Below are positions 16,212-55,227 of a stretch of DNA of 64,000 nt, piece after piece. A program made the translations under genes and the position numbers. The first letter of the stretch is position 1, and every line of letters starts with the position of its first letter. The notes below the pieces were generated by a model that was not told where the DNA came from, did not search any database, and was given only the letters and a program-made list of their open reading frames with translations. Source of the stretch: a virus (Duplodnaviria; Caudoviricetes); the IMG/VR virus record IMGVR_UViG_3300006213_001191, positions 2,099-66,098 of that record; one strand, 5' to 3'.

Positions 16212-16661
16212 TTAACAAATAGTTTCTAATCTAAATGATATATTATTTTTTCTAAAGCATTGAATGATGTATTCTGCATTCATTTGAGTAATTTTATAAG
16301 CCTTTTCTTTTGTTGGATAATTATAAGTTTTGTTATATCCTTTTTCTACACTATCATACTGTAAAATAAAAAATGTTTCAAGAGCTTTCATCTGTCTACT
16401 TGTGCCTACCTCATCTAGTAGACATAATGTTTTAATCTCAAATTCATGCCCTATATTAAAATCTTTCTGCATTTCTTCTATAACATGATTTCCTTTTCTT
16501 AAAGAATAATAATGACCTGCCACTCGATGAACTGCATCTACAGAATATCCCACATAAATTTTACTATTACTCAGATTTTTTATCATATAGACACATGAAA
16601 CAGCTATATTTGCAATTATATCTCCTATATTTATTTCCTTAGTCTGATTTGATATCTTCAT
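16212..16661 (-). CDS. GIY-YIG nuclease family protein
   Basis: SCVYMIKNLSNSKIYVGYS..RVAGH..LETFFILQYDSVEKGYN. Confidence 0.85.
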   Translation of the reverse strand: MKISNQTKEINIGDIIANIAVSCVYMIKNLSNSKIYVGYSVDAVHRVAGHYYSLRKGNHVIEEMQKDFNIGHEFEIKTLCLLDEVGTSRQMKALETFFILQYDSVEKGYNKTYNYPTKEKAYKITQMNAEYIIQCFRKNNISFRLETIC

Positions 16662-17033: not shown

Positions 17034-17960
17034 ATGTTAAAAAATCAATTATTTGGAGTAGAAGTAGAAATGACAGGTATCACAAGAAAAAAGGCTGCTA
17101 TGATTGTTGCGAATGTTCTTGAAACTTCACCTTCAAGAGCTGACAGCACTTGCTATTGCACACGCACTATTACCGACCAAGCATCTCGCAAATGGAAAAT
17201 CATGATAGATTCTTCTATAAATCCTCAAAGAAACGATGATAGCTTAGAAGCTCTGGATGAATACCGAGTAGAATTTGTTACCCCGCCTCTTGAGTATAAG
17301 GATATAGAACTTCTTCAAAACATCATTCGGGAACTGCGTAAAAATGGAGCAAAAACAGATAATAGCTGTGGCATACATATTCATATAGACGGAGCAAACC
17401 ATAATCCACAATCACTTAGACGGTTAATAAATTTTACAATCGCTCGACAGGATTTAATATATGAAGCCCTTGAAATTCAAAGCCGTGCAAATCATTGGTG
17501 CCATAAATTAAATAGTGCCCTGCTTACTGAAATGAAAAAAGATAAAAACCTTTCAAAAGAAAAAGCAGAAGAAATTTGGTATAGCAGCGCCAATGATGGA
17601 TACTCAGATGGTATTAATCATCAACATTATAATCGTACCCGTTATCATGGAGTAAATCTTCACAGCTATTTTTCTAAAGGCACCGTAGAATTTAGACTTT
17701 TTAACAGCACTCTTCATGCAGGAAAAATCAAAGCATATATTCAGTTTTGCTTAGCAATATCCGCATGGGCTATCACATCACAGGAAAAAATTGTATTCCG
17801 TTCTATGGCTGGCTACACCGCAGAACAGAAAGTTACAATAATGAGAAATATTCTTACCCGTCGGTTGGGACTTTATGGAGATGAATTTAAAACCTGCCGT
17901 CTCCACCTTATGACACCATTAAAGAAAGCCGCAGGAATGACCTGCAAAACAGCTGCATAA
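17034..17960 (+). CDS. Amidoligase family (Amidoligase_2-like) protein
   Basis: FGVEVEMTG, WKIMIDSSI, VEFVTPPL, SCGIHIHID, RYHGVNL, GTVEFRLFNSTL. Confidence 0.92.
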   Translation: MLKNQLFGVEVEMTGITRKKAAMIVANVLETSPSRADSTCYCTRTITDQASRKWKIMIDSSINPQRNDDSLEALDEYRVEFVTPPLEYKDIELLQNIIRELRKNGAKTDNSCGIHIHIDGANHNPQSLRRLINFTIARQDLIYEALEIQSRANHWCHKLNSALLTEMKKDKNLSKEKAEEIWYSSANDGYSDGINHQHYNRTRYHGVNLHSYFSKGTVEFRLFNSTLHAGKIKAYIQFCLAISAWAITSQEKIVFRSMAGYTAEQKVTIMRNILTRRLGLYGDEFKTCRLHLMTPLKKAAGMTCKTAA

Positions 17961-18008
17961 TAAAACACTTGCTGACCTATCGGCATAACGGGGAAATAGG
18001 AGAAAAAG

Positions 18009-18206
18009 ATGAAAGCATATGGAATGATTGCGCAAATAGAAAAAGGACGACATTATGCATCTGATGATGTATACATAAAAAACTGCCGTTTAAATAATGG
18101 AAAACATCGACACCAACGTGTTCGCCGACATAAAAGAATTTACAATCATATTGAACGGTCAAGGTCAAAAGCAATTTTAAACAAAGAATTACAAAATTGG
18201 AGGTAA
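18009..18206 (+). CDS. Small basic hypothetical protein
   Basis: RBS AGGAG; lies between amidoligase and GGCT. Confidence 0.65.
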   Translation: MKAYGMIAQIEKGRHYASDDVYIKNCRLNNGKHRHQRVRRHKRIYNHIERSRSKAILNKELQNWR

Positions 18207-18216
18207 ATATAATATT

Positions 18217-18660
18217 ATGGAAAAATTGTATATTGCTTATGGAAGTAACTTAAACTTATCACAAATGGCTGTTAGATGCCCATCCGCAAAAGTTTACGCA
18301 AAAGGAATATTAAATAACTGGAAACTTGTTTATAGGGGTAGGAAATTAAATGCACATGCCACAATAATAAGAAAGCAGGATTCTATTGTTCCAGTTCTTG
18401 TCTGGAAGATTTCTACTGAAGATGAAAAGAAACTAGATATTTATGAAGGTTATCCACATTATTACTTTAAAAAGAATATTATGGTGTATATTAATGGAAA
18501 GAAAAAGAAGGCAATGGCATATATTATGAATGAAAACCAGCTTCCCGGAAAACCTTCTGACCGGTATATTCAAACTATTTTACAGGGATATATTGATAAT
18601 GATATGGATGTTACTATCCTAAAAAAATCTTTAGACTTAAATTGTATAGAATGTAAATAA
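18217..18660 (+). CDS. Gamma-glutamylcyclotransferase (AIG2-like) family protein
   Basis: LYIAYGSNLNLSQMAVRCP, LDIYEGYP, PSDRYIQTILQGY. Confidence 0.92.
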   Translation: MEKLYIAYGSNLNLSQMAVRCPSAKVYAKGILNNWKLVYRGRKLNAHATIIRKQDSIVPVLVWKISTEDEKKLDIYEGYPHYYFKKNIMVYINGKKKKAMAYIMNENQLPGKPSDRYIQTILQGYIDNDMDVTILKKSLDLNCIECK

Positions 18661-18724: not shown

Positions 18725-18979
18725 CTATTTGACTGATGGATTCTTAGGTTCTTTCGTTGTATGCGGCTTTTTTTTCAAATCGTCATCTCTTACAATTAAT
18801 TCGTCAAGTCTGCAACCTAAAGCTTTGCAAATCAGGTCCAAATGGTCAAGATTTACTCGGTCATTTAACTCATGGTACAACTCATTAATTGTATTTGGGC
18901 GTATGCCTGTTTTTCTTGCTAAATCAGCCTGCGTCAAACGTCTTTCCCCAAGTCTTGTCGATAATAAAATCCTTATCAT
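18725..18979 (-). CDS. Cro/C1-type (HTH_26-like) regulator
   Basis: LTQADLARKTGIRPNTINELY..LDLICKALGCRLDELI. Confidence 0.92.
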   Translation of the reverse strand: MIRILLSTRLGERRLTQADLARKTGIRPNTINELYHELNDRVNLDHLDLICKALGCRLDELIVRDDDLKKKPHTTKEPKNPSVK

Positions 18980-19133
18980 ACGTCTTGCTCCTTCCGTTAT
19001 AAGATAACACCATTGAAATTAAAATGGTGAATTTTGTTATTTTATAACGGAATATGATATAGAGATTGTATGGGATGTTGAATATAGGCGATATATAGCA
19101 AATTTTCCAACAAAAAAATTTTTTACAAAACAA

Positions 19134-19169
19134 ATAAGCTTCTTGAAATTGATAATTCAAGAAGCTTAT
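19134..19169 (-). terminator. Terminator of the CRISPR mini-array transcript
   Basis: 14-bp perfect stem ATAAGCTTCTTGAA/TTCAAGAAGCTTAT followed on the minus strand by TTGTTTTG. Confidence 0.75.
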
Positions 19170-19172
19170 CTT

Positions 19173-19580
19173 GTGTCAATGCCCTATTTCGGGCTACTTT
19201 CATTTCTACTTGTAGGCTGGAAGAATGAAACAAATGAAATCGTAAATGTGTCAATGCCCTGTATCGGGCTTCTTTCAGTTCCACTAAAATGGTAATTACA
19301 TTTTGGGCAGAAAATAAGCAGTGTGTCAATGCCCTTCTTCGGACTTCTTTCATTTCTACAATTAATGAAATTGTTTCAAGCAAAATTCTTGTTGTGTGTC
19401 AATGCCCTTCATCAGGCTTCTTTCATTTCTACCTGCAGGAAGATATAAAGTGTTCTTCATTGGAGATATGTGTCAATGCCCTTCATCGAGCCTCTTTCAT
19501 TTCTACAGTATTTTAAAGTTGTCAACACTAGTACATACGAAAGGTGTCAATGCCCTGCATCGGGCTTCTTATATTTAGTA
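19173..19580 (-). CRISPR. Orphan CRISPR mini-array: 6 degenerate 37-nt repeats, 5 spacers (38, 38, 36, 37, 37 nt); no cas genes in window
   Basis: Repeats start at 19173, 19248, 19323, 19396, 19470, 19544; + strand consensus GTGTCAATGCCCTtcaTCGGGCTTCTTTCATTTCTAC; minus-strand form has a GCCC-N6-GGGC hairpin followed by 8-nt ATTGACAC. Confidence 0.93.
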
Positions 19581-19605
19581 TACTACTTTTTTGATTCTGT
19601 GAAAA
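19577..19605 (-). promoter_or_regulatory. Putative sigma70 promoter for the mini-array
   Basis: Minus strand TTTTCA-N17-TATACT; predicted start near 19570, inside the truncated first repeat. Confidence 0.65.
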
Positions 19606-19672
19606 GCTATTTCTAAAAATTTTGTTTCCCACCACCCAAAGAGGGAAGCAGGAAACATTTTTTCATTTGTGG

Positions 19673-20674
19673 CTATTTAATCAGCTTTCCACTTTTAAGC
19701 AGAGAAAGCAATCTGTTATTTTGGTCTGCACTACCTCTATAACCTGTAATCCTGTTTTTAGCTGCAATCTTTTGGCGATTTGCAAAAGAGCTTTCTATTC
19801 CCACAGCTTTCAATCCCTCTACAATACTAACACTATCACCTGTATAACGTGGATAGTAGCTTACCTGCGACTGTGGCTCCGGTTTTGGAGCTGGTGCAGA
19901 AGCCGTATATAATCCCCGAATATCCCCGTCATTCACATACAAGCCATTATCCAGCTTATATTTTGCCTGACCGCTTACAATCGCTGTGATTGTTCCATGC
20001 CCGCTGCCTCCAGTTGCGTACTGGATTCCGCATGGAAGTGTTGGCGCCGGATAAGAAGTTCCATATTCCACAGCCTGTCCAATAGAATATTTATGAACGG
20101 TCTGTGATGTTTGAGTGGCAGTAGCTACTATACTCCCTGTAATCCCTTTCACAATCGCCTGCGCGCATTTTTCTGCGTTCCAGCGGTCCGCATCATCTTT
20201 GTCGTCGACGAATGCGCACTCTATAATGATTGCCGGCGCCTTTGTATGCTTTAAGACATAATATCCCTGATTAGTTTTAAATCCCCTATTGGTAATTCCA
20301 AGGGCTGCCGCTATCTCTGCGCATATTCTTGTCCCAACATCTTTTGTGCCGTTATCATAGCCCCAGACTTCGACACCGCCTGTTCTGTCATCACCAGCAG
20401 TGTCCTCTCTTCCGGCATTAAGGTGGATAGAAACATCTAAATCTACTGTATGGGCGTTACATTTTGCCACAATAGCACTAAGATTCTCTCCTGCGGTTCT
20501 TCCGCTGTCGTCTGTACAGTCATAGACTGTGTGTCCTGCTGCTCTTAACAGTTCCACTACGCTATTCTTTACTTTTCTGTCCTCGGTCACTTCGTCTAAA
20601 ATTCCGTTTGCGCCTCTGCAAATGAGGGAGTGCCCTGCATGAATGTTGTATGTACTCATATTATTTTTCCTCAC
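19673..20674 (-). CDS. Endolysin, N-acetylmuramoyl-L-alanine amidase (Amidase_3) with C-terminal binding region
   Basis: IHAGHS, LDEVTED, DVSIHLNA, APAIIIECAFVD. Confidence 0.95.
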   Translation of the reverse strand: MRKNNMSTYNIHAGHSLICRGANGILDEVTEDRKVKNSVVELLRAAGHTVYDCTDDSGRTAGENLSAIVAKCNAHTVDLDVSIHLNAGREDTAGDDRTGGVEVWGYDNGTKDVGTRICAEIAAALGITNRGFKTNQGYYVLKHTKAPAIIIECAFVDDKDDADRWNAEKCAQAIVKGITGSIVATATQTSQTVHKYSIGQAVEYGTSYPAPTLPCGIQYATGGSGHGTITAIVSGQAKYKLDNGLYVNDGDIRGLYTASAPAPKPEPQSQVSYYPRYTGDSVSIVEGLKAVGIESSFANRQKIAAKNRITGYRGSADQNNRLLSLLKSGKLIK

Positions 20675-55155: not shown

Positions 55156-55227
55156 TTGTAATTCCCATTTTCTCGCTCTATAATCTTTTACAGGCTGTTT
55201 GCAGCAGCCAAGTACATACGAAAGGAG
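55156..55227 (+). promoter_or_regulatory. Promoter + conserved leader, copy 2
   Basis: TTGTAA-N17-TATAAT then ACAGGCTGTTTGCAGCAGCCAAGTACATACGAAAGGAG. Confidence 0.8.

Follow-up and report, generated by a model that had tools for sequence, protein, structure and literature searches.

Repeats that are processed by Cas6 in CRISPR systems of types I and III, such as those of the staphylococcal type III-A system, are characterized by a short 3' hairpin and an 8-nt 5' tag. Arrays borne by viruses without cas genes are already known, including the mini-arrays of the Sulfolobales viruses SPV1 and SPV2 and the leaderless mini-arrays of prophages (PMC6858448; reviewed in PMC11656645), and the mini-arrays of archaeal viruses use the Cas proteins of the host against competing viruses (PMC6858448; PMC11656645). 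The published mini-arrays contain one or two spacers and their repeats are identical to those of the host (PMC11656645), and it has been suggested that the leaderless mini-arrays of phages gain spacers by recombination with host arrays (PMC6858448). RNA anti-CRISPRs (Racr), or solitary repeat units, constitute another described arrangement, in which single repeats without regular spacers are preceded on a prophage by a promoter located immediately upstream of the repeat hairpin; no type III Racr is described in the main text of that publication (PMC10651486).

The phage array presented here resembles the virus-borne mini-arrays in being cas-less, carried by a virus and composed of repeats of a host CRISPR family, as well as in its presumed use, that of host Cas proteins against competing viruses; like the phage mini-arrays, it has no canonical leader. 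It departs from the published ones by its five spacers (six or seven in other samples) instead of one or two, by the fact that every repeat is different, by the link of its repeat family with type III-D and by the absence of any target virus among those searched. With Racr it shares the promoter immediately upstream of a repeat hairpin and the conservation of the hairpin and tag needed for the binding of Cas6 and of the effector, but it is a periodic array rather than a single unit and its spacers have a normal length and an antisense-like composition. Its predicted 4-bp G+C stem followed by a presumed 8-nt tag fits the layout of Cas6-processed type I and III repeats. Finally, the chromosomal type III-D arrays of Dorea sp. 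5-2 and its genus (KE159792.1 and the genomes G408, G413 and G414) have in common with it the 37-nt repeat family, the GCCC/GGGC stem, the 8-nt tag, the spacer length and the occurrence of G.U stem variants, whereas they adjoin cas10, csx10, csx7 and cas6, begin with a leader of ~100-200 nt, end with a degenerate last repeat and are mostly uniform; the phage array has no cas gene, a short promoter in the place of the leader and repeats that all differ. What is new is thus not the existence of a cas-less array on a virus but its five to seven spacers, its link with type III-D and its all-different, constrained repeats.

Array anatomy and surrounding genes

The window, i.e. the whole stretch of 64,000 nucleotides that was analysed, belongs to an IMG/VR virus record of 66,098 bases considered complete by CheckV (100%). 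The array comprises six repeats of 37 nt, starting at 19173, 19248, 19323, 19396, 19470 and 19544, and five unique spacers of 38, 38, 36, 37 and 37 nt in ascending coordinate; the resulting period of 73-75 nt, with regular repeats and unique spacers of similar length, is that of a CRISPR array. In the order of the presumed transcript, the features of the region are as follows.

19673-20674, minus strand: endolysin gene, with an Amidase_3 domain and a DUF3597-like C-terminus, upstream neighbour of the array
19624-19656, minus strand: terminator-like hairpin after the endolysin stop, unflagged by the scan, common to related prophages
19577-19605, minus strand: sigma-70-like promoter, TTTTCA-17 nt-TATACT, common to two related prophages
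19173-19580, minus strand: cas-less CRISPR mini-array of six repeats and five spacers, defined by repeat alignment
19544-19580, minus strand: repeat, first in transcript order, of which the hairpin and tag alone are repeat-derived
19507-19543, minus strand: spacer 5, first in transcript order, 37 nt
19470-19506, minus strand: repeat with stem GCTC/GGGC, G.U at the third pair (alignment and RNA fold)
19433-19469, minus strand: spacer 4, 37 nt
19396-19432, minus strand: repeat with stem GCCT/GGGC, G.U at the loop-closing pair (alignment and RNA fold)
19360-19395, minus strand: spacer 3, 36 nt
19323-19359, minus strand: repeat with stem GTCC/GGGC, G.U at the second pair (alignment and RNA fold)
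19285-19322, minus strand: spacer 2, 38 nt
19248-19284, minus strand: repeat with unchanged stem, loop and 5' flank different (alignment and RNA fold)
19210-19247, minus strand: spacer 1, 38 nt
19173-19209, minus strand: repeat, last in transcript order, complete, with unchanged stem (alignment and RNA fold)
19122-19171, minus strand: intrinsic-terminator-like hairpin (16 pairs) and T-run, directly after the last repeat
18725-18979: XRE-type regulator gene, the array being located between it and the endolysin gene

Read on the minus strand, a repeat consists of a 15-nt 5' flank, the two arms of a 4-bp stem (GCCC/GGGC) enclosing a 6-nt loop, and an 8-nt tail, ATTGACAC. The first repeat in transcript order is truncated, its 5' part being replaced by promoter-proximal sequence, and the -10 hexamer of the promoter (19577-19582) overlaps its degenerate-looking end. 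No gene for a RAMP protein, Cas6, Cas10 or Cas1 was found on the whole 66-kb virus record, so that the array is borne by a virus genome without cas genes, as are the known mini-arrays. Tandem Repeats Finder did not report the array because its spacers differ, and the repeat had no CRISPR-DR match in Rfam, either at the gathering score or at E-values up to 10.

A tail fibre gene and small phage genes lie near the array. Beside it, a plus-strand pair of genes encoding an amidoligase (PF12224) and a gamma-glutamyl cyclotransferase-like protein (GGACT) occupies positions 17034-18660, in a cargo region between the lysis genes and a neighbouring element, and a GIY-YIG homing-endonuclease-like gene is found at 16212-16661 on the minus strand.

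Repeat family, related prophages and orientation

Species-representative genomes were scanned for the repeat family and gave a match in Dorea sp. 5-2, a Lachnospiraceae from the mouse gut (KE159792.1), where the arrays lie directly beside genes for Cas10, Csx10 and several Csx7 RAMP proteins, a gene set that corresponds by its predicted products to type III-D. A Cas6-family gene (327 aa; PF10040, 60.6 bits) is present within this locus (L032:3502-4485, plus strand) and is a plausible candidate for the processing enzyme; an initial reading of the locus as having no Cas6 was dropped, the PF01881 (Cas6_C) search being blank but PF10040 and TIGR01877 giving matches. Cas10 also adjoins an array of the family in a metagenome locus (L050), and the same repeats are thus found beside cas genes, as expected from a genuine CRISPR repeat family. 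The family occurs in 4 of 18 genomes of the Dorea sp. 5-2 genus, and five repeats of the phage array are at one to four changes from its consensus, the truncated first repeat being at seven.

Several other loci of the family display particular organizations. The genome G122 harbors a three-repeat array with identical repeats and a typical leader (L043:9748-9931, in G122:C52), with genes for surface proteins and an AAA-ATPase around it and no cas gene within 9 kb. The Dorea-like arrays (L056:4216-6165, L053 and L032:13371-18830) are split by an insert of ~1.29 kb carrying a DUF6431 gene, with an IS91 transposase and a group II intron reverse transcriptase nearby, and the locus consequently looks repeatedly invaded by mobile DNA. 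In a further locus (L052:165-2968), two heterogeneous arrays follow leaders of ~200 nt that are near-identical to each other, and the interval between them contains small XRE-like genes along with several ACGCACATAT motifs; judging from this organization, the locus may be a mobile element with adaptation-competent arrays.

Two metagenome contigs (L047 and L051) encode an endolysin 82-85% identical in nucleotides to that of the phage, which served as a synteny anchor. Both present the same succession of endolysin gene, hairpin, promoter hexamers, truncated first repeat, heterogeneous array and terminator, followed by bacterial genes, and they are related prophages with an array at the same site. 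The phage itself looks temperate, its two closest relatives being integrated prophages. Each of the two arrays has about seven spacers, and no spacer is common to the three phage arrays. Such an array is absent from 14 IMG/VR phages with related endolysins; the scan of IMG/VR for the repeat revealed no other viral contig, a looser repeat pattern gave two unrelated matches there, neither with an array, and a search of GenBank phages with the whole array gave no match. The phage was found in mouse-gut metagenomes of 12 studies, which fits hosts like the mouse-gut Lachnospiraceae. The 18 genomes of the Dorea sp. 5-2 genus gave only short matches, of 67-84% identity, to 12.5 kb of the phage, and none of them contains it.

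The preliminary description deduced from the G-U pairs of the variant stems that the array is read on the minus strand, and four lines of evidence independent of this argument lead to the same orientation. The promoter and the terminators are conserved in the three phages. The chromosomal arrays of the repeat family run in this orientation from the leader to the degenerate last repeat. The 8-nt tag ATTGACAC is close to the canonical Cas6 tag, differing by one base from its common form, ATTGAAAC/G. In the minus-strand reading, the spacers are rich in pyrimidines: read as guides, 12 of the 13 spacers of the phage arrays have a purine fraction below 0.5 and one has exactly 0.5. As the coding strand of the phage is purine-rich (0.595), this composition fits guides antisense to mRNAs; the open-frame test on the orientation of the spacers was not significant. 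Contigs from RNA libraries cover the array, without part of the endolysin gene, but they are indistinguishable from DNA carry-over and say nothing on expression, since contigs cannot show transcription, strand or ends. Altogether, the array presumably forms its own minus-strand transcription unit, with a promoter running into the truncated first repeat and a terminator after the last one.

Searches of GenBank phages, of IMG/VR (20-mer scans) and of the collected loci, all of which require near-exact matches, yielded no protospacer for any of the five spacers, and the spacers of the other arrays of the family gave no match to the window. The middle of spacer 4 has a 21-nt exact match in an unrelated IMG/VR contig of higher G+C content (L060:1134-1154), which is probably due to chance given the mismatched flanks. 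A 14-nt match of spacer 5 to positions 55211-55224 (E = 0.029 in a 64-kb search) was set aside.

Constraint on the repeat hairpin

In the preliminary description, the six repeats were reported to be all different while keeping their first 13 plus-strand nucleotides and an RNA hairpin, and the alignment agrees with it on each point. Columns 1-13 are constant and 15 of the remaining 24 vary. The 13-nt block, which spans the tag, the 3' arm of the hairpin and the base before it on the minus strand, is present in exactly six copies in the window; when up to two mismatches are allowed, 1.16 chance matches are expected and none of 100 shuffles reaches six. The stem variants in three of the repeats each correspond, as described, to one C-to-U change on the minus strand (G-to-A on the plus strand) and hit three different positions of the 5' arm, in plus-strand columns 21, 19 and 20 of the repeats at 19323, 19396 and 19470, respectively. 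The same 4-bp hairpin is obtained for the six repeats on the minus strand, in the minimum-energy as well as the centroid fold (-8.4 kcal/mol where the stem is unchanged, in three repeats, and -5.3 to -5.8 kcal/mol where it contains a G.U pair, in the other three), whereas the plus-strand RNA of the three variants loses or shortens it (-0.3, -3.4 and -0.8), as anticipated. In all six repeats, the eight nucleotides directly 3' of the hairpin are invariant, which is the layout of repeats processed by a type III Cas6. An assembly error as the source of the variants was ruled out by contigs from independent mouse-gut runs, in which the repeats at 19396 and 19470 are covered without any listed difference and the repeat at 19323 is found unchanged.

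These three stem changes, all of them pair-preserving, are by themselves only suggestive of selection on the hairpin, the probability of such a result being ~0.125 when only transitions are allowed and 0.005-0.016 with broader null models. A stronger statistic is that none of the 13 columns of the block varies (p ~0.006, even with the truncated first repeat ignored). No two-sided covariation is observed among the window's own repeats.

The constraint was consequently evaluated over the repeat family. The first data set, formed by the window, the Dorea scaffold, the genome G122 and 14 metagenome loci, provided 45 distinct repeats, in which 99.4% of the stem cells form a standard pair, with a single mismatch. 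Each of the four stem pairs varies in one arm only, and the variant is always a G.U pair. Shuffling as a control for the pair counts gives no information on stem pairing, because the 3' arm hardly varies. Changes were compared between regions of the repeat, each array or group of near-identical arrays being counted once, which resulted in 10 units whose counted events may partly share ancestry between arrays. The stem underwent 10 C-to-U changes, one G-to-A change and no transversion, versus 31 transitions and 45 transversions among 76 changes in the loop and 5' flank (Fisher p = 1.5e-4). The rate of C-to-U in the stem (10/40 site-units, 0.25) is near-neutral, being similar to that of G-to-A at unconstrained G sites (13/60, 0.22), whereas G-to-A in the stem (1/40, 0.025) is ~9 times rarer than at those sites (p = 0.007) and transversions are suppressed (0/80 site-units in the stem vs 45/210 in the loop and flank, p = 2e-7). 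At the two C positions of the tag, C-to-T is the commonest change (6/20 site-units). A deamination bias on one strand fails to explain this pattern, given the suppression of G-to-A and transversions in the stem.

Three genomes added later (G408, G413 and G414), outside the 10-to-1 stem count, agree in the main with the counts of the first set. In one of them, 15 repeats distributed over several arrays have the G.U form GCTC/GGGC as their consensus stem, showing that such a stem is compatible with array growth, and another of the later arrays mixes the GCCC and GCTC forms. Changes that break the stem are concentrated in the last repeats of the later genomes. As last repeats need no hairpin, they represent an internal control for unconstrained decay. 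Two stem-breaking variants lie elsewhere: the next-to-last repeat of the Dorea-like arrays has GAGC, and one internal repeat of G414 has GGGA. One region of G408 (L086, G408:C47:12000-26000) contains four or five small arrays of a repeat sub-family, 0.6-1.1 kb apart and all with the GCTC/GGGC consensus; one last repeat of this region reads GCTC/GAGC, a matching G-to-A change restoring a compensated U-A pair.

The selection on the hairpin proposed in the preliminary description is thus upheld by the stem pattern of the whole family together with the broken stems of the unconstrained last repeats, and its suggestion to examine the arrays of related phages, which could be followed for the two prophages, revealed no random stem-breaking decay. 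The 3' arm of the hairpin, the base before it and the tag appear to be under strong purifying selection, the 5' arm seems to tolerate only C-to-U changes that retain a G.U pair, and the loop and much of the 5' flank would drift.

Role of the array and origin of its repeat diversity

We consider it probable that the locus is a cas-less CRISPR mini-array carried as phage cargo, which provides working guides for the Cas6 and type III-D system of the host in the competition with other phages. In a host equipped with this system, the transcript would be cut at the 3' base of the 4-bp hairpin, giving guide RNAs with the 8-nt tag ATTGACAC; these guides would load into the type III-D complex of the host, which would then be directed against transcripts of competing phages or other mobile elements. 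We infer the transcription of the array, its cleavage by Cas6, the loading of the guides and their targets from the organization of the locus and from its resemblance to the systems cited above.

The main rival to a guide array, which we regard as unlikely, is an RNA decoy that would soak up Cas6 and type III-D subunits of the host with non-targeting guides and shield the phage as an RNA anti-CRISPR does, with spacers that are irrelevant filler. The strong-looking promoter of its own directly before the repeat hairpin is reminiscent of solitary repeat units, a non-targeting crRNA is reported to lower interference as well (PMC10651486), the failure to find protospacers agrees with filler spacers, and the hairpin and tag would be kept by selection in a decoy as well. 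The spacers are more difficult to reconcile with it: they keep the 35-39 nt range of the chromosomal arrays in the three phage arrays and in the extra units described below, with one 64-nt interval in the L051 array as the exception, their content is entirely different among three related phages, and they have the antisense-like pyrimidine bias expected of selected RNA-targeting guides. Five to seven units, moreover, exceed the need of a decoy. It is far less probable still that the locus is a dead relic, decaying without selection, in which the excess of C-to-U would result from deamination of the non-template strand. Such decay would agree with the predominance of C-to-T at the two C positions of the tag, and with cas gene, host and target all being unfound; it is contradicted by the rarity of G-to-A and the lack of transversions in the stem, by stem-breaking that is present in last repeats, where no hairpin is required, and by the promoter and the two terminators, which are conserved between phages with 15-18% divergence in their endolysin genes.

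Phage arrays show 4.7-5.7 nt of difference per repeat pair and chromosomal ones 0-2.2 (Mann-Whitney p = 0.008), in a comparison that omits the truncated first repeats of the former and the last repeats of the latter and that relies on a small sample in which several chromosomal arrays are related. Adjacent repeats share at most ~15-19 nt of uninterrupted identity in the phage arrays vs 24-37 in the chromosomal ones. Further heterogeneous arrays are those of L044, L048 and L052, possibly located on mobile elements. The preliminary description raised the possibility that this diversification limits the recombinational loss of spacers, which is not borne out by the alleles of the array retrieved in other mouse-gut samples. 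These have one (X3) or two (X15 and X16) extra spacer-repeat units after the repeat at 19323 (19323-19395), in flanks that are otherwise identical, and therefore six and seven spacers. The first extra spacer is 39 nt long and is the same in two studies, and in the extra repeat the GCCC/GGGC stem is intact and the loop differs. Since canonical acquisition takes place at the leader end, the extra units are most simply explained by internal deletions or exchanges, and the variation among alleles implies that recombination between these non-identical repeats does occur, internal units being gained or lost between near-identical phages.

Selection for the diversity of the repeats, by which short tracts of identity would lower the loss of spacers or their exchange with host arrays, consequently appears quite doubtful. 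The higher pairwise differences of the phage arrays and their shorter runs of identity between adjacent repeats are what it predicts, and the repeats do differ outside the 13-nt core of hairpin arm and tag and the pair-preserving stem. The same heterogeneity is however expected without selection where no adaptation-driven copying of one repeat homogenises the array, near-identical phages differ by one or two internal units, and the C-to-U rate of the stem is close to the G-to-A rate of the free sites, as under drift. The phage arrays have a short promoter and not a leader, and hence would not grow by copying one repeat. The most likely explanation is that the repeats differ in the absence of leader-driven adaptation, with units lost or exchanged by recombination. 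If selected diversity were nevertheless true, it would be a natural counterpart of the engineered non-repetitive guide arrays, and it predicts, as a general rule, greater heterogeneity on mobile elements than on chromosomes for arrays of one family. Whether this difference is systematic, and what effect it has on the stability of the arrays, is a question raised by these data.

The locus adds a case linked to type III-D, with five to seven spacers, to the virus-borne mini-arrays. Its repeat family can also be regarded as a natural mutational scan, according to which the 3' arm of the hairpin, the base before it, the 8-nt tag and the pairing of the stem would be needed by the processing and loading machinery, and the loop would be dispensable to it. 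As regards the ecology of gut phages, it suggests that mouse Lachnospiraceae receive from their prophages guides for an RNA-targeting system that they encode themselves.
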